From Promethearchaeota archaeon (GTDB lineage Archaea > Asgardarchaeota > Lokiarchaeia > Sigyniarchaeales > SOKP01), in contig JAEOSU010000064.1 in assembly GCA_016840165.1 (NCBI GenBank), positions 1-26,496 of the forward strand: a DNA stretch of 26,496 nt. The letters are read 5' to 3'. A program made the translations under genes and the position numbers. Position 1 is the first letter of the stretch. Every line of letters starts with the position of its first letter. Shown piece by piece: positions 2,800 through 26,447 of this stretch. The notes under the pieces were generated by a model. The model was given only the letters and a program-made list of their open reading frames with translations, did not search any database and was not told the DNA's origin.

Positions 2800-4017
2800 C
2801 TAAATTATGGGCTCTTTTTTTTCATTAATCGGAGTAATAATCATCCATTTCCATAGGATGATTATAAGAACAAATATTGTTGCTGATAAAGCCGGTAAAA
2901 TTAATGTAGGAAGAAGATATAGCATTATTCCTCCTAAAATTGGAGTTATTATTTGACCAATACTGGTTAAAGAGTTAACTACCCCGAATAAACTGCCTGT
3001 TTCCTCTTTTTTAACAGTATTAGTTAACTTACTTGTAAGAATGGGGCGTGCTACTCCTGTCCCAAATGCTAAGAAGAAAAATGGAAGATAAACTATCCAG
3101 TAATTAGTAGAGAATATAAGAAAGAACATAGCAAATATCATTGTGAAAATACCAATTACTAGAGTTTTATTTTCACTTAATTTTTTCAGTATGGTATTTA
3201 TCAGAACACTCTGAAAAATAACCCTAAGAACCCCAATCCAAGCCATATAAAAGCTTACTTGTTGAGGGGTAGCGTTAATTTGCATTTCAGCAAATAGAGG
3301 AAAAGTGTTAATAAAAAGCATAAAACCAAAATTATAGATGAAGAAAACTATGATTAACCCCCTTATCACAGCAGATTTAAAGAAATATTTAGCTTCTTTA
3401 ATAGGGATAATATCTCCGAACTTAAACTCTAGTTTGTCTTCCCTTCTTTTTAATGATTCAGGTAATAAAATGAATACCAAAATGATTGAAAGCAGACTTA
3501 TTCCAGCAGCAAAGAAAAAAGGAGCTGAAAAATTGATTGATAATAATAAGCCTCCAATAACTGGACCAAATATTAATCCTGCACCGAAGACTGCACTTGA
3601 ATAACCGAAAGTTTTAGTTCGATATTTAGGATTGGTCACGTCGCTTATATATGCTTGAGTAACTGTCATATTACTTCCCAGAAGGCCATCTACTAATCTT
3701 GCGGCAATTAATATCCAAACATTACTGGATAAGCCAAGTAATATAAATCCAATAAATGTACTTATTTGACTGAATAACAATAATGGCTTTCTTCCGTATC
3801 TGTCGCTAATTTTGCCTGTAATTGGACTTGCAAAAAGTTGGCATATACTAAAAATACTAAGGATTAATCCTATTTCAAAAGCATTCAAGCCTAAAGATAA
3901 CCCAAGAAAGGGGATTAATGGTAACACACTAGTAAAACCTAAAACTTCTGTAAATTGGATTAAAAAAATTATTAAAAGCCTTTTTTCAAATTTTTTTTCT
4001 GAAAGTTTAGGTTCCAT
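2800..4017 (-). CDS. MFS transporter, TetA-like DHA1 family
   Basis: Motif A (GKISDRYGRKP), motif B (ARLVDG), AYISDVT, antiporter motif C (GAGLIFGPVIGG), about 12 TM segments. Confidence 0.92.
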   Translation of the reverse strand: MEPKLSEKKFEKRLLIIFLIQFTEVLGFTSVLPLIPFLGLSLGLNAFEIGLILSIFSICQLFASPITGKISDRYGRKPLLLFSQISTFIGFILLGLSSNVWILIAARLVDGLLGSNMTVTQAYISDVTNPKYRTKTFGYSSAVFGAGLIFGPVIGGLLLSINFSAPFFFAAGISLLSIILVFILLPESLKRREDKLEFKFGDIIPIKEAKYFFKSAVIRGLIIVFFIYNFGFMLFINTFPLFAEMQINATPQQVSFYMAWIGVLRVIFQSVLINTILKKLSENKTLVIGIFTMIFAMFFLIFSTNYWIVYLPFFFLAFGTGVARPILTSKLTNTVKKEETGSLFGVVNSLTSIGQIITPILGGIMLYLLPTLILPALSATIFVLIIILWKWMIITPINEKKEPII

Positions 4018-4256: not shown

Positions 4257-4360
4257 TGGGAAAGAGGGGACTTGAACCCCTGGCCTCTTGGTATTTTGCA
4301 CAATCAAAAATATTGAAAGTGTTCCGAACCAAGAATCATACCAAGCTAGACTACCTTCCC
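4257..4360 (-). tRNA. tRNA-Pro(CGG) with a 30-nt intron at canonical position 37/38 (intron 4293-4322); CCA not encoded
   Basis: Cloverleaf on the minus strand: acceptor GGGAAGG/CTTTCCC plus discriminator A; D arm GTCTAGCTTGGTATGAT; anticodon stem CTTGG/CCAAG; loop TT-CGG-A|intron|A; T arm AGGGG-TTCAAGT-CCCCT. BHB-like motif at the splice junctions. Confidence 0.9.
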
Positions 4361-5669: not shown

Positions 5670-7202
5670 ATGTTTATCGCAAGTCTTGATCTTGGTACGA
5701 CCGGAGTAAGAACATTTATTTTTGATATATCTGGAACTGTATTAGCGACAGATTATCAAGAATGGGAGAGTTTTTATCCTATCCCTTCATATGTTGAGCA
5801 GGATGCAAATTCATGGTGGAATTCGCTTAAAAAAACCATCGAAGCAGCTATTAAAAAAAGTGGCATTGATAAATCTGAAATTGTGAGTTTATCTGTGACC
5901 AATCAAAGAGAAACTATTGTTCCTATAGATAAAGAAGGTAATCCTTTACATAACGCATTAGTATGGCAAGATCGCAGAACTACAGATCAAGTAGAATTCA
6001 TCAAAAAGAAAATTGGTGCTGAAAAAGTTTACAAGACTACTGGTTTAACTATAGATCCTTATTTTTCAGCCACTAAGATATTATGGTTTAAGGATAATAA
6101 ACCCGAAATCTATAAAAAAGCGCATAAGTTTTTGTTAGTTTCTGATTTTATATTATTTAAGCTGACTGGTCAATTTTATACGGATTATTCTAATGCATCT
6201 CGGACTATGTTGTTCGACATTAATAAGTTAAAATATTCTGATGATATTGCATCTGATTTGGAATTAGATTTAGATAAAATGCCTGAACCCTTAAAAAGTG
6301 GTAAAGATATAGGAGAAATAAATACCGATGAAACTCTTTTTGACAAAAAAACCTTGGTAATTACAGGAGCGGGGGATCAACAATCAGCAGCATTAGGAGT
6401 GGGAGTTACTTCCCCAGGCACGATAAAATTAACAACTGGAACTGGCAGTTTTATGTTAGCATATTTAGAAAAACCTAATTTTGACCCAAAGAAGCGTGTA
6501 TTATGTAGTTGTCATGCTGTTCCTGGTGCTTGGGTTCAAGAAGCAAGTATTTTTACTACTGGAGCCTATTTAAGATGGTTCAGAGATGAAATTGCCTATG
6601 AAGAGTGTATTGTAGCAGAAGAACAAAATCAAGATCCTTATAATATTATATCTAAAGAAGCAAATGAGTCTCCTGTGGGTGCTAATGGCTTAATAACAAT
6701 CCCGCATTTAGTAGGAGCTGGAGCACCTCACTGGAATCCTTATGCGAGAGGAATTATCTTTGGATTGGCATTAGGGCAAAAAAGGAGAGATATTGCTCGT
6801 GCTATTCTAGAAGGAGTTGCTTTTGAAGTAAAGAAAAATGTTGAAGTATTTCAAGAATTAAATATCAAACCTGTCGAATTAATGCTAACTGGGGGAGGAT
6901 CCCGATCTGATCTATGGAATCAGATAATTTCAGACGTTTTAGGGATTATATGTGTAAGGAATGTCATTGAGGAAGCTACATCGTTAGGAGCAGCAATACT
7001 AGCGGCTTCAGGTGCAGGAATTTTCCCGGATATTGCCAAAGCAGCCGAAAGCATCTGTAAGATCGACAAAAAATGGTTACCAGATACAGATCGTCATTCA
7101 AAATATGATAAGTTATACCGGTTCTCTTATGATTTATATAATCTCTTGCAATCAGATAATATTTATACTAAATTCCAGGAAATTATACGGAACAAAGAGT
7201 AA
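5670..7202 (+). CDS. FGGY-family carbohydrate kinase (glycerol kinase/xylulokinase-like)
   Basis: DLGTT phosphate-1 motif, TNQRET, WQDRR, TDYSNASRTMLF, GDQQ, GTGSF, GAGAPHW and GGGSRS. TNQRET, WQDRR and NASRTMLF resemble glycerol kinase; substrate not certain. Confidence 0.9.
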   Translation: MFIASLDLGTTGVRTFIFDISGTVLATDYQEWESFYPIPSYVEQDANSWWNSLKKTIEAAIKKSGIDKSEIVSLSVTNQRETIVPIDKEGNPLHNALVWQDRRTTDQVEFIKKKIGAEKVYKTTGLTIDPYFSATKILWFKDNKPEIYKKAHKFLLVSDFILFKLTGQFYTDYSNASRTMLFDINKLKYSDDIASDLELDLDKMPEPLKSGKDIGEINTDETLFDKKTLVITGAGDQQSAALGVGVTSPGTIKLTTGTGSFMLAYLEKPNFDPKKRVLCSCHAVPGAWVQEASIFTTGAYLRWFRDEIAYEECIVAEEQNQDPYNIISKEANESPVGANGLITIPHLVGAGAPHWNPYARGIIFGLALGQKRRDIARAILEGVAFEVKKNVEVFQELNIKPVELMLTGGGSRSDLWNQIISDVLGIICVRNVIEEATSLGAAILAASGAGIFPDIAKAAESICKIDKKWLPDTDRHSKYDKLYRFSYDLYNLLQSDNIYTKFQEIIRNKE

Positions 7203-18925: not shown

Positions 18926-19561
18926 ATGATGTCCGAAAACGATAATTTTAGTTTAGAAGATGGTACAATACTCATAAAATTTGCTAGAGATAATATACAA
19001 TACTATTTAGAGAATGACAGGAGGATTCCAATCCCCGAAGAGATCAAAAAGAGATTTTCAGAAAAATATGGTGCATTTGTCACCCTTAATCGTATAGATG
19101 TCCAAGGAAATCCATTAAGAGGATGTATTGGGTATATAGAACCTGTATATCCCTTATTTGATATTATTCACCGGGTTTCAATCAGTTCCGCTTTAGAGGA
19201 TCCTCGATTTCAACCTATAACTAAAGATGAATTAGATAAGATAGTAATTGAATTATCAATATTAACACCTCCCAAATTGCTTGAAGTTGATGATCCAAAT
19301 GAATATTTAAACTTGATCGTCATTGGGAGAGATGGTTTAATCGCTGAAAGGGGTATGAGAAGAGGTTTATTACTACCTCAGGTACCAGTCGATCATGGAA
19401 GGAACTGGGATGTAGAGACTTTTTTAAAGCATACCTGTAATAAAGCTTATCTCCCGAATGATGCTTGGAAAGAAAAGGATACAAAAATTTATTCATTTCA
19501 AGCAATTTTATTTGAAGAAGAAGAACCACATGGCGAAGTTAAAAGGAAATATTTAGTATAA
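18926..19561 (+). CDS. AMMECR1-domain protein (archaeal TIGR00296-type)
   Basis: GAFVTL, LRGCIG, EDPRF, IELSILT, GRDGLI, GLLLPQV. Confidence 0.93.
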   Translation: MMSENDNFSLEDGTILIKFARDNIQYYLENDRRIPIPEEIKKRFSEKYGAFVTLNRIDVQGNPLRGCIGYIEPVYPLFDIIHRVSISSALEDPRFQPITKDELDKIVIELSILTPPKLLEVDDPNEYLNLIVIGRDGLIAERGMRRGLLLPQVPVDHGRNWDVETFLKHTCNKAYLPNDAWKEKDTKIYSFQAILFEEEEPHGEVKRKYLV

Positions 19562-19589
19562 AAGCTCTCAATTTTTTTCGTGAATTGTT

Positions 19590-21098
19590 ATGAATAATCC
19601 AAAAGAAAAGATCATATCAATTGATATATCGTCAAATTCTATAAAAATAGGCTTAATTTCGGATAATTTAAGGGTAGACTACTTCACTAGACAAGATCTT
19701 AAAATATATAATGAAGATATAGACGGTTTTGCGAAAAGAATCGATATGGATGATTTATGGCATAAAATTAAAATTGGATTTAAAGAGATTACTAGAAGAT
19801 ACATATCAGATAATATTAAAATAATTGCGATCTCCACCTGTGCTCAAAGGATTGCTAGTGTTTTTTTGGATGAAGCCGGAAAAACTATTTATGGAGGACC
19901 GAATACGGACATAAGAGGTATAGATTCAGGCTATTTAATTGAAGATGCTTTCTCTGAAGAAGAATTATTTGAAATAACAGCACATAATCCCTCAATATTA
20001 TTTTGCTTAGCAAGGTTATTATGGTTCAAAGAAGAGGAGAAGGAGAGTTACGATAGAATTAAAAAAGTATTGATGCTCGACGATTGGATAGCGTATAAAC
20101 TTACGGGAATTTTCTGTACAGATTTAACGTCTTTAGCAGAGTCTCAATTAATCGATATAAAAAAAGCTAATTGGAGTTCAGAGATTATAGAAGCGTTTAA
20201 CTTAAATTATGACCTTTTTCCACCAATTGTAGATTCGGGTTCTCAGATTGGGTATTTAAAGCCAGACTTAACTCGAACCTTTGAAATAAATAATGGAAAT
20301 ATCCCTATTATTAAAAATGGAGCAGATACTCAAGCATCTTTACTAGGAATGGGCGCGATTGAAAAAGGAGATTTAGGGATTAGCATGGGAACCACCACTC
20401 CATTACATCTGGTATTAGAAAAACCCTATATTGACCCTGAATTGACTTTTTGGACGTCTTTTCATTCAATTCATAATAAATGGATTCTTGAATCTCATGC
20501 AGGTAACACTGGCTCGTTATACAATTGGTTTAAAAACTGTTTTTTAAATAGATTTTCAGAAGATTCAGATGCTCTTATAGACACATTTCTTAAAAAATCA
20601 AAGCCCGGCGCATTATCAACCTTTTCTTATTTAGGTCCTGAACTTATGAACCTTAAAAATCAAACTTCAATAAAGCGAGGAGCATTCGTATTTCCTCCTC
20701 CCATGATGATATCAGATGTATTGCCGGTGTTAGATGATTTTGCTCGAAGCATTATCGAGAATATTGCTTTTGGAATCTATGAAAATTATCAAGCACTCCA
20801 GAAATTTCAAATTTCAAAAGTATTTTGTGCAGGTGGCATGAGCAAATCAAGAGAAATTTTGAAAGTTCTCGCAAATATATTAGGTACAAATCTAATTATT
20901 CCTGAATATAAAGACTCCTCATTTATAGGAGCAGCTATGAGTGCTCTGAAGACTTTACAATACTATGAGAATTATAAATCAATTATTGATGAAAATATAA
21001 AGTTTGAAACTATAGAAAATGATGCTTCTCTTATAGAAAACTATTCACAAATATATCTACAGTGGAAAAATATTAAAAATAAGATTGATAATTTGTAA
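19590..21098 (+). CDS. FGGY-family sugar kinase, YoaC/LsrK-like subgroup
   Basis: SIDISSNS (variant phosphate-1 motif), STCAQR, PNTDIRG, DWIAYKLTG, GADTQ, GTT, AGGMSKS. Confidence 0.82.
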   Translation: MNNPKEKIISIDISSNSIKIGLISDNLRVDYFTRQDLKIYNEDIDGFAKRIDMDDLWHKIKIGFKEITRRYISDNIKIIAISTCAQRIASVFLDEAGKTIYGGPNTDIRGIDSGYLIEDAFSEEELFEITAHNPSILFCLARLLWFKEEEKESYDRIKKVLMLDDWIAYKLTGIFCTDLTSLAESQLIDIKKANWSSEIIEAFNLNYDLFPPIVDSGSQIGYLKPDLTRTFEINNGNIPIIKNGADTQASLLGMGAIEKGDLGISMGTTTPLHLVLEKPYIDPELTFWTSFHSIHNKWILESHAGNTGSLYNWFKNCFLNRFSEDSDALIDTFLKKSKPGALSTFSYLGPELMNLKNQTSIKRGAFVFPPPMMISDVLPVLDDFARSIIENIAFGIYENYQALQKFQISKVFCAGGMSKSREILKVLANILGTNLIIPEYKDSSFIGAAMSALKTLQYYENYKSIIDENIKFETIENDASLIENYSQIYLQWKNIKNKIDNL

Positions 21099-21185
21099 TA
21101 GCCTTTTTATGATATTCCATATAATTAAATTATATTATTCTATTCTTTGAATTAAATCTCAACTAAAGTTATTGGTGATAATAGG

Positions 21186-21533
21186 TTGTCTTTTAGCAAT
21201 ATAAAATCATGTTTGAAAGAAATAGAAGATCGATATAATACCAATGAAAATGTGAAAAAAAAGTTAGCTAATTATGATGAGCCAATTCAAATTACATTTC
21301 TTGATACAAATCGCTCAATCTTATTGCTAATTAATAAAGATCAAGGGATCGAAATTAAAGATAACTTTAATGATGAGAATGCGGCTGTGAAGATTGAATT
21401 CACTTCCGAAAAGGTGATGCTTGATTTATACAATAAAGAAGTCGGAGCTGTAAAAGCATACTCTACTGGAAAGATCAAGGTTGTTGAAGGAAAAATTCGA
21501 AATTTGATGAAACTTAAAAGTTTGATGTTTTAA
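21186..21533 (+). CDS. Stand-alone SCP2 sterol/lipid-carrier domain protein
   Basis: 115 aa with the SCP2 C-terminal signature AVKAYSTGKIKVVEG...LMKL..L. TTG start with GGTGA SD at 21174-21178. Confidence 0.78.
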   Translation: MSFSNIKSCLKEIEDRYNTNENVKKKLANYDEPIQITFLDTNRSILLLINKDQGIEIKDNFNDENAAVKIEFTSEKVMLDLYNKEVGAVKAYSTGKIKVVEGKIRNLMKLKSLMF

Positions 21534-21615
21534 TTAGTTATGAATCATTTTTTTGTTTAATTCATTTTGTATAAAAAAAATTTGAATCATTTAGAATAAT
21601 AGAGGTAAAAATAAC

Positions 21616-23298
21616 ATGAAAGCATTAATAACAGCTAGTCTAACTAAAAGTTCTTTAAAAGAGTTAGAAAAAATTATGGAAGTAACCTACGAGAGCTGGA
21701 GAGATACAGGAATTATATATTTTGATGCTAATGAGTTACTTGAAAAGTTAAATGGTTATGATATTTTTATTACTGCTGTTGATGATTTAAAAAAAACAGA
21801 GTTTTTTGAGCATACCGATTTGAAGCTAATTATAACTTGTAGAGGAGACCCTTTTAATTTAAACATTGAAGCTGCTAATAAAAAAAAAATACCAATCCTC
21901 TACACTCCTCTAAGGAATGTTGATGCTGTTGCGGAATTAACCATTGGATATATGATTAGCTTAGCAAGAAATGTAACAAAGTTAGATAGGTTTTTGCATT
22001 CCGAGGACTTTAGTATAATTGATTTTGAGGATTGGATTGATATTTATAATAGATTTATGGGAACAGAATTAATAAATAAGAAAGTTGGCATTATTGGTTT
22101 GGGAGAGATAGGTCGTAGAGTGGCTAAAATTACACAATCATTTGGATGTAGAAACCTAATCTTTGATCCCTATGTAAACGAAGAATTTGTAGCAGATTTT
22201 GGAGAGAAAGTAGATTTAGACAAACTTCTAAAAGAATCTGATTTCATTACGATTCACGCAAGAGCTACAGATGAGAATGATAATTTAATCGACGAAAAAA
22301 GGATTACGATGATGAAAGAAACCGCTTACCTCCTCAACTTAGCAAAAGGGAGTCTTGTTGATTATGAAGCGCTTTTTAACGCTTTAAAAGAAAAAAAGAT
22401 TGCTGGTGCGGCTTTAGATGTATTCCCTCTTGAACCAATCGATGAAGATAACAAATTCCTACAATTAGAGAATGTCATTGTGAGTCCTCATCTTGGAGGA
22501 AACACAATTGAGGTCATTCAAAGACAATCAGAAATGATCCTTAAAGGAATCAAGGCTTGGCTAAATAATGAGATTCCAGCTAATATTTTGAATCCCGAAG
22601 TATTAAACCTTCATACTAAGGAAAATATAAAATACGATAAAGATCTATTTAGTAAGAAAAAAGAGATATTAGCTATTTGTAAAAAGCTATTAGAAGAAGG
22701 ACATGTTATAGGATCCGCAGGAAACGTAAGTATGCGTGTATTATATAATAAACAAGAACTTATTTTAATTACTCCGAGCAATGTAAGATATGATACTATG
22801 AAACCTGAAGACATTTTAATAATAAATTTAGAGGGAAAAGTTATTGAAGGAGAGAGAAATCCATCTGTGGAAAAACATCTTCATTTAGGTATCTATAAAG
22901 CTCGTGATGATGTTAATGCTATAATACACTCTCACGGTATATATTCGACAATATTAAGTACTTTAAAATTATCTTTACCTCCGATCATTGAGGAGTTAGT
23001 ACCATATTTAGGAGGTGAAATCATTTGTGCTGAATATGGTGAAGCTGGTACGGAAGAATTAGCTCATAGTGTAGTGAAAAGTCTTGAAAATAAAAATGCG
23101 GTTTTACTCGCCAACCATGGAAATATTTGTTGTGGAAGCCATTTAGATGGTGCTTATATGGTTCTTAGATATTTAGAACGAGGTGCAAAAATATATTACT
23201 TAGCTAAGCTATTAAAAGATCCAACTATGCTTCCAGAAGATACTATTGATTATGAGAAAGATATTTTCGAAATTTTTAAAGAATCAAAAAAAATTTAG
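21616..23298 (+). CDS. Fusion: D-isomer-specific 2-hydroxyacid dehydrogenase (N-terminal) + class II Zn aldolase/adducin domain (C-terminal)
   Basis: N-terminal domain: AVAE, GIIGLGEIG, FDPY, AALDVF..EP, SPHLGG. C-terminal domain: GNVS.R, ITPS, PSVE..LH..IY..R.DVNAIIHSH, LLANHG. Confidence 0.92.
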   Translation: MKALITASLTKSSLKELEKIMEVTYESWRDTGIIYFDANELLEKLNGYDIFITAVDDLKKTEFFEHTDLKLIITCRGDPFNLNIEAANKKKIPILYTPLRNVDAVAELTIGYMISLARNVTKLDRFLHSEDFSIIDFEDWIDIYNRFMGTELINKKVGIIGLGEIGRRVAKITQSFGCRNLIFDPYVNEEFVADFGEKVDLDKLLKESDFITIHARATDENDNLIDEKRITMMKETAYLLNLAKGSLVDYEALFNALKEKKIAGAALDVFPLEPIDEDNKFLQLENVIVSPHLGGNTIEVIQRQSEMILKGIKAWLNNEIPANILNPEVLNLHTKENIKYDKDLFSKKKEILAICKKLLEEGHVIGSAGNVSMRVLYNKQELILITPSNVRYDTMKPEDILIINLEGKVIEGERNPSVEKHLHLGIYKARDDVNAIIHSHGIYSTILSTLKLSLPPIIEELVPYLGGEIICAEYGEAGTEELAHSVVKSLENKNAVLLANHGNICCGSHLDGAYMVLRYLERGAKIYYLAKLLKDPTMLPEDTIDYEKDIFEIFKESKKI

Positions 23299-23497
23299 TA
23301 AATCCACTAAATATTATTTAAATTTTCTTTAATTAGTTCAAATTTTCAAGATTTATAATGAATATAATAAAATTAAGCAATTATAATTAAATTATGAAAG
23401 ATTATTAAGGAATATTACTTGACTATTTAATAAATCTTAGAGGGAAAGCCTCACAATTAATATCTTAATTGCGTGAAGACAAAGGGTGAATTAAACG

Positions 23498-25567
23498 ATG
23501 GAGATAAATGGTGTTATTGTTCCCTCTTTGACCTTTTTTGACGAAAATCAAAATATAAATAATGAAGTTCAGAGTCTTTTGATAAAACATTTGCTCATAA
23601 ATGGTGCTGATGCTATACTACTTCTCAGTCTGATTGGGGAAGGCTTACTATTTTCTGACGATATCGAGCAAACATATAATTTAATTGATCTCACTTATGA
23701 AGCAACTGGAAAAAAGACACCAATTCTTTTAAATATTCTTGGAAATGATGAAGAAAATAGAATTAGTAAATTAAATGAATTCGGAAAAAAATATTCAAAC
23801 TTAGCTTTTGTCCTTCCTCCACCGCTTTATAAAAAATACTCATCTTCTGAATTGATTTCTTACTTTGAAAATATCTTTAGTTCAATTAATATAAAAAATC
23901 CTATAATACTCCATAATAATCCTATTAAGTTTCATGAGAACGAATTGACTCCTGAAATAGTTACAAAAGTAAGAGAATTTTCAAATATGAGAGGGCTCAT
24001 CGATGATTTTGAAAATATTAACTATGCCAAGTTTTATTCTTCAATCATAAGTGATAAATTTTCAATATTTTGTTCTAATGAAGGAAACTTTCAGAAATAT
24101 TTCCAAATAGTCCCTCCAGAGCATCATAAAACAAGTGGTATTGTTCCGAGCATCAGTAACTTGGTTAATTTATGCTCTAAAATTTACTATTGCGCATTAG
24201 AAGAGAAGTTATTGGAATTACACCAATACCAAGATGATTTAAATGACCTTCACACTAAAATTTATGATCCAAAAATCGATCTAGGAAAAGTACGTAGGGG
24301 TTTAAAGTATGCATTTCTTTATCTTTATAAAGATATATTATCTACTCCATTAAAATATAATTATAATATATCTCCTGAACTTCAGAGAGATTTAGATGAC
24401 ATCACGATAGGAAGAATTAATGCAACTATTAATTATTTAATTAATCAAAAATATATTTATAAGCTATATTCGCTAGGTAAACAACAGATTTATCAGCTTA
24501 ATGATATTATAAAAATTTTTTCCGATGTCAAAGTTTTGCTAAATCAAGGGAAAATTAAAAAAATAATTGGGCCTTATTCCGCAAACTTTAATACAATTTA
24601 CCGAGTAAACTTTGAGAAATCAAAAATATTATTTCGATTTCGGACTTCAGAATATTTTAGATCAGAAGAAATGATTAAAGAAAAGCTCATATTCCCCTTA
24701 TTAGATGGTACCATTAATAGTAGCGTATCTAATTTTCGAGAGATAATAAAACCCTTTCTACGTTCTAATAAAGGGGAGTATATTTTTAAGGAAAATAAAC
24801 CACCTATTATCCCTGTAAGCAACTTATTATATTATGATGAAACTAAAGAAAAAATCCCTTATAATTTCAGTATTCAAGAATATATACGCGGGAAATCTTT
24901 AAATGAGATTTTAGGGGAAAGTATGAATTTTTCAAAATCTAAATTTTTGAATCTATTTTATAATATAGGTGATATTTTAGGAAAAGTTCATAGTATAGAA
25001 TTTAATTATTTTCAAGAAACTTTATATGATATTGCTAAAGAAGGAACAGATAATTGGTTAGATATTTTTGAACCACAATTACATATAGAGATTCAAGAAT
25101 TAAGAAGAAATAAATTTGACATTGATAAAGAACTTTCCAAATATTTCAAAGAACATGAATCGCTTATAATGGATGATCAAACTCCAGTTTTAATTCATAA
25201 TGATTTTCAACTAACTAATATTATAGGAAAAGAGGAATCAGGCAAAATTAATATAACAGGGATAATTGATTTTGACGATTGGAGTATTGGAGTGAAAGCT
25301 CAAGATTTTGTAAAACTCTATTTTCTTACATTTAATGTAATCAATAACCCAGATATTCTAAATTCATTTCTAAGTGGTTATAAAAATCATCATACCATCG
25401 AACCGGATTTTGATAACAAAATTAAGCTTTACACAGCTTTTTGGTTATTAAGAATGTTAAATTATGAATCATTGAAGAAAGAAAACGAGAAACCTCTAAT
25501 CTCGAGATCTTACTCTAATGAAACAGCTTATTATCTAGAAGAATTAAAAAAAATAATATCTAATTAA
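23498..25567 (+). CDS. Fusion: degenerate DapA/NAL-family TIM barrel + aminoglycoside-phosphotransferase(APH)-like kinase
   Basis: N-terminal domain: GVIVPSLTFFD, NGADAI...GE, VLPPPLY, PIILHNNP. C-terminal domain: NTIYRV, IQEYIRG, LGKVH, LIHNDFQLTNI (Brenner motif), GIIDFDD. GGGTGA SD at 23484-23489. Confidence 0.85.
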   Translation: MEINGVIVPSLTFFDENQNINNEVQSLLIKHLLINGADAILLLSLIGEGLLFSDDIEQTYNLIDLTYEATGKKTPILLNILGNDEENRISKLNEFGKKYSNLAFVLPPPLYKKYSSSELISYFENIFSSINIKNPIILHNNPIKFHENELTPEIVTKVREFSNMRGLIDDFENINYAKFYSSIISDKFSIFCSNEGNFQKYFQIVPPEHHKTSGIVPSISNLVNLCSKIYYCALEEKLLELHQYQDDLNDLHTKIYDPKIDLGKVRRGLKYAFLYLYKDILSTPLKYNYNISPELQRDLDDITIGRINATINYLINQKYIYKLYSLGKQQIYQLNDIIKIFSDVKVLLNQGKIKKIIGPYSANFNTIYRVNFEKSKILFRFRTSEYFRSEEMIKEKLIFPLLDGTINSSVSNFREIIKPFLRSNKGEYIFKENKPPIIPVSNLLYYDETKEKIPYNFSIQEYIRGKSLNEILGESMNFSKSKFLNLFYNIGDILGKVHSIEFNYFQETLYDIAKEGTDNWLDIFEPQLHIEIQELRRNKFDIDKELSKYFKEHESLIMDDQTPVLIHNDFQLTNIIGKEESGKINITGIIDFDDWSIGVKAQDFVKLYFLTFNVINNPDILNSFLSGYKNHHTIEPDFDNKIKLYTAFWLLRMLNYESLKKENEKPLISRSYSNETAYYLEELKKIISN

Positions 25568-25571
25568 TGAT

Positions 25572-25940
25572 TTATTGATATAGAACGCATACTATTAAGG
25601 GAAAATTCCACGGAACTTTATCGCCGCTATAAATTAAGGATTTTACTTCATCCGAGGCTTCAATATTGGAATGATCTTTAAAAACTTTCCAAGAAAGTTT
25701 ACCGATTATGCCCTCATCATTTAAAATATCACTAAAATTTTCTTTAATCCCTGCCCAGTAAATCCTTTTTTTATCCATTATTTCTTTTAAATCATTCAAC
25801 TGAACTAATTTCTCCAACACAATATTCTCACTTACATTTGTAAAATATTTAGAGAATTTGCTTCCCATTTCATCGGGAGAACCTAAATTTCTATTATATA
25901 AAAACACTATTCCAATCGATTTCAATTCTATCCCATCCAA
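25572..25940 (-). CDS. Hypothetical protein
   Basis: 122-aa ORF with TTG start that fills the gap between two genes and has globular composition. No family recognised. Confidence 0.65.
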   Translation of the reverse strand: MDGIELKSIGIVFLYNRNLGSPDEMGSKFSKYFTNVSENIVLEKLVQLNDLKEIMDKKRIYWAGIKENFSDILNDEGIIGKLSWKVFKDHSNIEASDEVKSLIYSGDKVPWNFPLIVCVLYQ

Positions 25941-26036
25941 GTTAGTTTTCTTATTTATACAAATTGGGAAAAAATATTATAGGTTTAGTTTATAGAAAAT
26001 AAATAATATCATTCAAAGATTTTAAAAATTAATATT

Positions 26037-26447
26037 CTACCAAAATGCTTTTCGAAATCGGTCTATAGTTTCTTCTAAACTTCCCTCAATTTCCTCTTCA
26101 AACTTTTTAAAGATGCTTACATCATTGTCCCAATTCTTTAACATTTGCGGAGGATACAATTTAAAGAACTTTTCAACGATTTCTTTTAATTCTTCCATTA
26201 TTTTTTTTTCTTTTATTTTTTTAGAAGAATTTGCGATGAATATTAGATTGTTTTTTTTTAATAGTGTGAATCTCTTATCATGTAATTCAAAATTTGATAA
26301 ACCATCTTTTACAACCTCTTCTGCAAACGAATTTAAAGCAGAAAACAAGCTTCCAAATAACTGATCATCAAAGTTTTCATCATAAATACGATGATATAAT
26401 ACAATTCCCGCTTCTGTTAAAATCCAAATATCCTGCAGAACTTTCAC
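26037..26447 (-). CDS. Longin-like domain protein (eukaryotic signature protein type)
   Basis: IWIL..AG.VLY.R (beta-beta), D.QLFG.L.SAL.SFA (helix), three beta strands ending LIFIA, then two helices ending F..F...I. This matches the longin topology. GTG start. Confidence 0.72.
   Translation of the reverse strand: MKVLQDIWILTEAGIVLYHRIYDENFDDQLFGSLFSALNSFAEEVVKDGLSNFELHDKRFTLLKKNNLIFIANSSKKIKEKKIMEELKEIVEKFFKLYPPQMLKNWDNDVSIFKKFEEEIEGSLEETIDRFRKAFW

Follow-up and report, generated by a model that had tools for sequence, protein, structure and literature searches.

Three adjacent genes of a Promethearchaeota archaeon, coding for an FGGY-family kinase (P0001), a stand-alone SCP2-fold protein (P0002) and a D-2-hydroxyacid dehydrogenase fused to a class II aldolase domain (P0003), form a single functional unit. 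They occupy positions 19590-23298 of the stretch analysed here, namely the 26,496 nucleotides at positions 1 to 26,496 of contig JAEOSU010000064.1 (forward strand), which we call the window. We tentatively favour the view that these genes make up one catabolic module, in which a polyol-ended amphipathic substrate would be phosphorylated, oxidised and then aldol-cleaved to dihydroxyacetone phosphate (DHAP) and a lipophilic aldehyde. A fourth gene, P0004, follows on the same strand and is an accessory, lineage-specific neighbour that was gained and lost independently of the triad. The features are listed below.

19590-21098, plus strand: FGGY-family kinase P0001, 502 residues, core member (Pfam FGGY_N and FGGY_C)
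21186-21533, plus strand: stand-alone SCP2-fold protein P0002, 115 residues, TTG start, core member (Pfam SCP2, fold model)
21616-22620, plus strand: D-2-hydroxyacid dehydrogenase domain, residues 1-335 of the 560-residue fusion P0003 (Pfam)
22636-23298, plus strand: class II aldolase domain, residues 341-560 of the 560-residue fusion P0003 (Pfam)
23498-25567, plus strand: DHDPS-like pseudo-aldolase barrel fused to an APH-type kinase, P0004, 689 residues, accessory neighbour (Pfam)

The initial annotation had proposed that four co-oriented genes form one undescribed system. The open reading frames indeed lie exactly at 19590-21098, 21186-21533, 21616-23298 (the whole of P0003) and 23498-25567, all on the plus strand. 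As a system, the kinase, SCP2 and dehydrogenase-aldolase genes stood together while the DHDPS-APH gene did not, since it is found in Asgard archaea only, is patchy there and is not part of any bacterial fusion. Homologues of the locus proteins are labelled Promethearchaeota or Lokiarchaeota, and the host Asgard genome has a size of 3.6 Mb and a G+C content of ~30%. The full-length dehydrogenase-aldolase fusion gene is present in 27 of 40 relatives, from four families. Furthermore, the kinase, SCP2 and fusion genes are adjacent in the window's order in all 11 window-type loci of the genus, and they are adjacent also in the loci that carry the variant version described below. Synteny of the first three genes extends through the genus and the order, so their arrangement is not due to chance, and the co-occurrence in related genomes expected in the initial annotation was thereby found.

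Bacteria carry all four domains in one chain, so that the fusion logic by which the genes had been linked from the start is borne out. An exhaustive search with the dehydrogenase domain returned stand-alone relatives together with many proteins of 890-1,485 residues. P0132, P0137 and P0155 (1,312-1,481 residues) contain FGGY, 2-Hacid_dh, SCP2 (one or two copies) and Aldolase_II, in that order; one of these three is MEW6179088.1 from Chloroflexota, and other long fusions were found in Halioglobus and Syntrophaceae. Some fusions consist of FGGY and the dehydrogenase, sometimes with SCP2, and have no aldolase. Among the 150 nearest dehydrogenase-domain relatives, at least 15 clusters at 50% identity have the four domains and about ten are of the FGGY-dehydrogenase(-SCP2) type. 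The module occurs in Asgard archaea, Chloroflexota, Proteobacteria, Actinomycetota and haloarchaea. Gene pairs in which a dehydrogenase is followed by a kinase of the same subfamilies are common in many bacteria. Contigs were also scanned with the dehydrogenase alignment using a generic peptide pattern for 2-hydroxyacid dehydrogenases, which gave 80 loci, 14 of them with a kinase and/or an aldolase; because the pattern is generic, most of the 80 are unrelated dehydrogenases.

In the kinase tree P0001 groups with the kinases of the giant fusions, of Dehalococcoidia and of Binatus (98/98 support), while the five other FGGY genes of the host genome fall outside this clade. Likewise, all the kinase-associated dehydrogenases form one clade (99/98 support) that excludes the paralogues of the host genome itself. 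The dehydrogenase and the kinase of the module thus constitute well-supported subfamilies of their own and, on account of these two clades, the trees give the window's kinase and dehydrogenase as orthologues of the corresponding domains of the giant fusions. Bacillus sp. N5-665 has a member of the kinase clade and lacks a dehydrogenase of the subfamily.

Both Pfam domains of P0001 score above cut-off (FGGY_N, 1e-36 and 127 bits; FGGY_C, 5e-17 and 63 bits). The catalytic Asp lies in GADTQ (residues 245-249) and is kept in the Asgard, giant-fusion and Dehalococcoidia kinases. The signatures PNxDxR and GxDTQ are common to P0001 and the kinase domain of the giant fusions; the N-terminal phosphate loop, usually DxGT(S/T), is an unusual DISS in the window's clade and DxGS or DxGG in relatives. 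The motifs quoted in the initial annotation are present in the translations, PNTDIRG and GADTQ in the kinase, CRGDPFN and YTPLRNVDAVAE in the dehydrogenase, and are family signatures shared with distant relatives. P0001 was compared with the named FGGY equivalogs XylB, LsrK, FucK, GlpK, GntK, RhaB and AraB by means of the curated NCBIfam cut-offs and remains below all of them, the best being XylB (175.5 bits against a cut-off of 380), followed among others by LsrK (159 against 528), FucK (108 against 471) and GlpK (94 against 590).

The best solved relative of P0001 is LsrK 5ya0 (E 6.9e-27), SorC-type regulators, whose family we take to include LsrR, stand beside bacterial fusions, and one fusion carries the JGI label 'AI-2 kinase'. 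These observations would agree with the processing of a signal resembling autoinducer-2 or its precursor 4,5-dihydroxy-2,3-pentanedione, in which an LsrK-like phosphorylation would be followed by reduction and cleavage. Such a role is nevertheless most improbable, given that the LsrK equivalog score is far short of its cut-off and is exceeded by that of XylB, that neither LsrF nor LsrG was present in any locus seen and that SCP2 would be left unexplained.

In P0003 the Pfam domains 2-Hacid_dh, 2-Hacid_dh_C and Aldolase_II are found in a single chain (2.8e-53, 4.2e-49). The dehydrogenase domain has an invariant NAD motif GxGxxG (G161, G163, G166) and invariant Glu273 and His292, and its subfamily is marked by the signatures xRGxPxN and TPGRN. 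The Arg of the catalytic Arg-Glu-His triad is replaced by Lys244 (NLAKG). This substitution was considered as a family trait and rejected, as it is confined to the window's close clade while the Arg is kept elsewhere in the subfamily, including the variant Asgard fusions and the giants. Compared with SerA, GhrB and PdxB, the domain is below the NCBIfam cut-offs for phosphoglycerate dehydrogenase (213 against 454), glyoxylate reductase (208 against 455) and PdxB (89 against 434).

The nearest solved relatives of the aldolase domain are 6btd (E 3.8e-44), which is DrdA (PMC6079011), and then FucA 4c24. The catalytic Glu419 and the metal ligands His438, His440 and His501 are invariant. Here too the equivalog scores fall short of the NCBIfam cut-offs, for PRK06833 (183 against 264), the 4-epimerase subfamily (145 against 251), FucA (113 against 400) and OtnC (106 against 250). 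No domain encoded by the four genes thus attains the curated cut-off of a named NCBIfam equivalog, XylB, LsrK, FucK, FucA and SerA included; judged by sequence scores, the module is not a member of any characterised equivalog.

For P0002 the Pfam SCP2 match is marginal (E 3e-5, 24.7 bits against a cut-off of 21.3). Its AlphaFold model has a pLDDT of 88.6, and the 47 best PDB matches of the model (E up to 6e-3) are exclusively SCP2-fold proteins or alkylsulfatases with an SCP2-like C-terminal domain. Among the Foldseek matches are the C-domains of SdsA1 and Pisa1, AF1534, SCP2 and UbiJ (E 5e-6 to 1e-3). The predicted fold therefore confirms the marginal SCP2 call. In sister clusters, membrane-anchored proteins have an SCP2 domain homologous to P0002 (34-40% identity). 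In the module proposed below SCP2 would hold the hydrophobic tail of a substrate. Complex prediction for the SCP2 protein with the fusion protein gave a score of 0.00, which weighs neither way.

SCP2 is kept in every Asgard version of the locus. In a second, variant version the fusion is 44-49% and the kinase 25-30% identical to those of the window; besides other families, four genomes of the window's genus have this version. Its SCP2 domain is the C-terminal part of a protein of 250-310 residues, the N-terminus of which has two predicted transmembrane helices followed by a low-complexity linker rich in Pro, Ser and Lys. One variant locus also has a second, free SCP2 and an Fe-type alcohol dehydrogenase. 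The membrane-tethered SCP2 genes lie directly 5' of the fusion gene at the positions below.

L027:8281-9084, membrane-tethered SCP2 gene
L023:10868-11683, membrane-tethered SCP2 gene
L025:7719-8573, membrane-tethered SCP2 gene
L026:7037-7807, membrane-tethered SCP2 gene
L028:10902-11846, membrane-tethered SCP2 gene

At three loci of the same genus (L022, L023 and L024) the variant version is found inverted in the same chromosomal slot, between AMMECR1 and the genes for a 122-residue protein and a longin-domain protein. Compared with window positions 18926-26447, the fusions there are ~48% and the kinases ~28% identical and the DHDPS-APH gene is missing; this looks like replacement by a homologous cassette. 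The longin-domain gene (Fuz_longin_1; window 26037-26447, minus strand) is conserved beside the locus, and its product has a eukaryote-like trafficking domain typical of Asgard archaea.

In the catabolic module that we favour, the SCP2 protein would hold the hydrophobic part of an amphipathic, polyol-ended substrate whose end would be a terminal 1,2,3,4-tetrol or of the 5-substituted 5-deoxypentitol type. The FGGY kinase would phosphorylate the terminal primary hydroxyl, the NAD-dependent dehydrogenase domain would then oxidise the neighbouring secondary hydroxyl to give an intermediate resembling a ketose-1-phosphate, and the metal-dependent class II aldolase domain would split this intermediate into DHAP and a lipophilic aldehyde. 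We infer this three-step route, with its reaction order, its DHAP product and the lipid nature of its substrate, because the domains stand in a matching order and the nearest characterised enzymes work by a compatible chemistry; indeed, DrdA and FucA yield DHAP and an aldehyde (PMC6079011). Of the substrates named in the initial annotation, the lipid-linked option has gained support, from the SCP2 fold, from the predicted membrane tether of SCP2 in variant Asgard clusters and from neighbouring genes. One FGGY-dehydrogenase-SCP2 gene stands among TetR, P450, thiolase and enoyl-CoA hydratase genes, and genes for Fe-type alcohol dehydrogenase, aldehyde dehydrogenase or aldehyde:ferredoxin oxidoreductase adjoin several versions of the module.

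Several observations weigh against this proposal. D-2-hydroxyacid dehydrogenases normally act beside a carboxylate and not a phosphate ester, and the operon is without any transporter gene. In the aldolase domain, Glu460 aligns with a Tyr of both DrdA 6btd and S. pneumoniae FucA 4c24, which we take to be the catalytic Tyr113 of FucA; L-ribulose-5-phosphate 4-epimerase presumably carries an acidic residue at the equivalent position. The domain could for this reason be an epimerase or a decarboxylase instead. Neighbouring genes add to these points, since the giant fusions and the Streptomyces operon have a SorC-type regulator and an MFS transporter next to them, the Halomarina version comes with a CUT1 ABC transporter, and CofC/CofD, not lipid genes, adjoin the trio of one Dehalococcoidia genome. 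As a further variant, a dehydrogenase relative from Paenibacillus is accompanied by a GntP acid-sugar permease and an aldolase of a different family (FBA-type). Finally, SCP2 is missing from the operons of Streptomyces, Paracoccus and Halomarina, and the kinases of these operons belong to another FGGY clade.

Much of this would suit a soluble substrate, for instance a tetritol, a pentitol, a 5-deoxypentose-derived compound or an acid sugar, with SCP2 serving to scaffold the enzymes or to take up a small aldehyde instead of carrying a lipid. Such a soluble route for a sugar, polyol or deoxy-sugar is possible, if somewhat unlikely. The SorC regulator and MFS transporter, the sugar ABC transporters of Halomarina and of Paracoccus, the GntP permease and RpiR regulator of Paenibacillus and the unfused bacterial and haloarchaeal operons without SCP2 all speak for it, as do the sub-threshold NCBIfam matches to 4-epimerase, 3-oxo-tetronate-4-phosphate decarboxylase and FucA. 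It accounts less well for the constancy of SCP2, which is present in every Asgard version, built into the bacterial giants in one or two copies and tethered to the membrane in the variants. Furthermore, the position of Glu460 is occupied by Glu or Asp in all SCP2-linked and Dehalococcoidia versions and by Tyr in the Paracoccus and Halomarina operons; given this retention of the FucA/DrdA Tyr and the different FGGY lineage, the operons without SCP2 may be a separate subtype.

Among lipids, one with a terminal 1,2,3,4-tetrol, as in the bacteriohopanetetrol side chain, suits the proposed chemistry as well as SCP2. The module would then act on bacteriohopanepolyols or similar polyol-tailed lipids, taking DHAP off their tetrol side chain and leaving a lipid aldehyde of the C32 type, with the kinase acting at the terminal carbon, the dehydrogenase at the next one and the aldolase in the cleavage. 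We regard this specific form of the proposal as unlikely. Among 81 Dehalococcoidia genomes sampled, 11 have an orthologue of the kinase. In four of these 11, hpnC/hpnD lie on the same strand 2.4-2.9 kb upstream of it, which speaks for a lipid substrate; since only those four carriers show this arrangement, a general association with hopanoid genes was rejected. In the host genome no squalene synthase was found, so that any triterpenoid substrate would have to come from outside, which counts against the proposal. Literature searches on hopanetetrol side-chain enzymes, like those on yoaD/yoaC, returned nothing relevant.

The domain order is equally compatible with the biosynthetic direction, in which the kinase and the dehydrogenase would make DHAP from glycerol and the aldolase would condense this DHAP with an SCP2-bound lipid aldehyde, giving the lipid a polyol head or tail. 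The link of the trio to squalene synthesis genes in some Dehalococcoidia and the tethering of SCP2 at the membrane would also suit this direction. It is quite improbable, as uptake transporters and catabolic-type regulators stand beside the bacterial versions, squalene synthase is lacking in the host genome and the GlpK score of the kinase is not that of a glycerol kinase.

P0004 combines DHDPS (2.6e-18) and APH (2.8e-13, 50.6 bits) in a single chain. In HMMER alignments to the KDG aldolase 4uxd and to DHDPS 3di0, the Schiff-base Lys of the barrel is replaced by Ile and the active-site Tyr of YNVP by His, in agreement with the initial description of a pseudo-DapA. The kinase motifs are intact in the translation (IHNDFQLTN for HxDxxxxN; IIDFDD for DFD). 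No MtnK-type NCBIfam match was obtained at E<=0.01, and the best match is an RdoA-like kinase (27.7 against 194). The intergenic gap 5' of P0004 measures 199 nucleotides, compared with 28-87 nucleotides between the other genes.

If P0004 were an obligate component, the four genes could form a system in which it supplies, for example, an MtnK/DrdK-like kinase step in the salvage of S-adenosylmethionine by-products. Wherever both genes exist the DHDPS-APH gene is immediately 3' of the fusion gene, the APH fold is that of MtnK and DrdK (PMC6079011), and the aldolase domain is nearest to DrdA. A four-gene system is nonetheless very unlikely. The DHDPS-APH gene is found in ten of 24 genomes of the genus, the other 14 having no match at E<=1e-30; it is missing from five of the 11 window-type loci and from all variant loci, and the triad persists in its absence in at least six genomes. 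Conversely, genomes G005 and G017 keep it while their fusion gene is a 115-residue remnant or absent. Its absence from the bacterial fusions, the lack of an MtnK-type match and the loss of the Schiff-base Lys point the same way. At G005:C138:83706-86201, the 115-residue remnant corresponds to the C-terminus of the fusion and lies directly before an intact DHDPS-APH homologue.

Full-text literature searches found no paper on this combination of four known folds. The mode of action proposed for the module would be that of the DHAP shunt or of the fucose pathway, with a dehydrogenase replacing the isomerase and a lipid-carrier domain added. As proposed for the module, 5-deoxyribose salvage through the DHAP shunt (DrdK-DrdI-DrdA; MtnK or MtnP-MtnA-Ald2; PMC6079011) ends with a class II aldolase of the FucA family that gives DHAP and an aldehyde bearing the variable end of the substrate. 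It differs in that an APH-fold kinase and an MtnA-type isomerase act on an aldose, whereas in the module an FGGY kinase and a dehydrogenase would act on a polyol; the module also has the added SCP2, a Glu in place of the DrdA/FucA Tyr and scores below the NCBIfam cut-offs. In the tetronate route (LtnD/DenD-OtnI-OtnK-OtnC; PMC12994016), oxidation, phosphorylation and an enzyme of the class II aldolase family also lead to DHAP, but the kinase is of the DUF1537 type and the dehydrogenase belongs to another family; besides the low OtnC score, the operon of the window has no OtnI. LerI was also considered as a class II aldolase, wrongly, as it is a TpiA homologue (PMC10733421).

L-fucose and L-rhamnose dissimilation (FucK-FucA-FucO; RhaB-RhaD) share with the module an FGGY kinase adjoining a class II aldolase, and the Fe-type alcohol dehydrogenase beside a variant Asgard cluster is of the FucO-like family. 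The module differs from these routes by having no isomerase in the locus, a dehydrogenase fused to the aldolase and SCP2, and its FucK and FucA scores are both far below cut-off. RhaEW, which Rodionova and colleagues are said to have described in 2013, is reportedly a rhamnulose-1-phosphate aldolase fused to a lactaldehyde dehydrogenase, that is, a class II aldolase domain joined to a dehydrogenase of the same pathway. In RhaEW a short-chain dehydrogenase reportedly acts after the aldolase, whereas the D-2-hydroxyacid dehydrogenase of the module is N-terminal to the aldolase and, in the giant fusions, stands between kinase and aldolase. The yoaDCB operon of Bacillus subtilis presumably codes for a 2-hydroxyacid dehydrogenase, an FGGY kinase and an MFS transporter; bacterial relatives of the module are flanked by the same trio, whereas yoaDCB is without aldolase or SCP2. 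In the homologue search started from a Bacillota relative, no protein named YoaD was listed. The function of yoaDCB has only been guessed at (PMC2885750).

If the substrate is a polyol-tailed lipid, the module would be the first enzymatic route that removes carbon from such lipids without oxygen, which would matter for what becomes of lipid biomarkers and for the life of Asgard archaea in sediments. If it is a bacteriohopanepolyol, anaerobic sediment archaea and Chloroflexota could use triterpenoid membrane lipids as food or alter their structure. The C32 hopanoic acids and hopanols that predominate in sediments would thereby acquire a biological origin. With a small sugar as substrate the module would still represent a new entry to the DHAP-forming aldolase step, in which a kinase and a dehydrogenase replace a kinase and an isomerase. 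In addition, a function would be assigned to thousands of genes labelled 'NAD(P)-dependent oxidoreductase', and cultured carriers (Streptomyces, Paracoccus seriniphilus and Halomarina) make the module testable.

Some related loci show further arrangements. In the Dehalococcoidia locus L053:4255-9562, CofD and CofC (F420 biosynthesis) lie directly before the dehydrogenase, kinase and aldolase trio, which is followed by a small HMG-CoA_red_N-like protein and then by genes for PNPOx and an F420-dependent oxidoreductase. On a Halomarina plasmid (L041:10374-11711) two tandem class II aldolase domains form one protein of 445 residues, with a dehydrogenase of the subfamily, the CUT1 ABC transporter and two FGGY kinases as neighbours. 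The operon of Paenibacillus sp. BR2-3 (L131:5923-11890) consists of genes for the RpiR regulator, the dehydrogenase relative, the FBA-type aldolase, the GntP permease and an FGGY kinase.

Around the locus itself, the 5' flank is made of housekeeping or unrelated genes (AMMECR1, an amidohydrolase, an RNA methyltransferase and SRP54), and an Rfam scan of the region gave no riboswitch and no other Rfam family. Farther off, Rfam detects a tRNA of 104 nucleotides (49 bits) at window 4257-4360 on the minus strand, presumably with an intron, where ARAGORN reports none. A second, more canonical FGGY kinase (FGGY_N 247 bits; window 5670-7202), two MFS transporters (1325-2587 and 2800-4017) and an acyl-CoA dehydrogenase (3-1145) are located 12-19 kb upstream, with no link to the module shown. 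At L033:7870-11649, ~2-6 kb past the right end of the window, there are an inositol-monophosphatase-family gene, a Y-family polymerase, a stand-alone class II aldolase and a xylose-isomerase-like TIM barrel. This stand-alone aldolase also has Glu at the position of the FucA Tyr (IMEEQ), and it is found 2-6 kb from the fusion gene in most loci of the genus.

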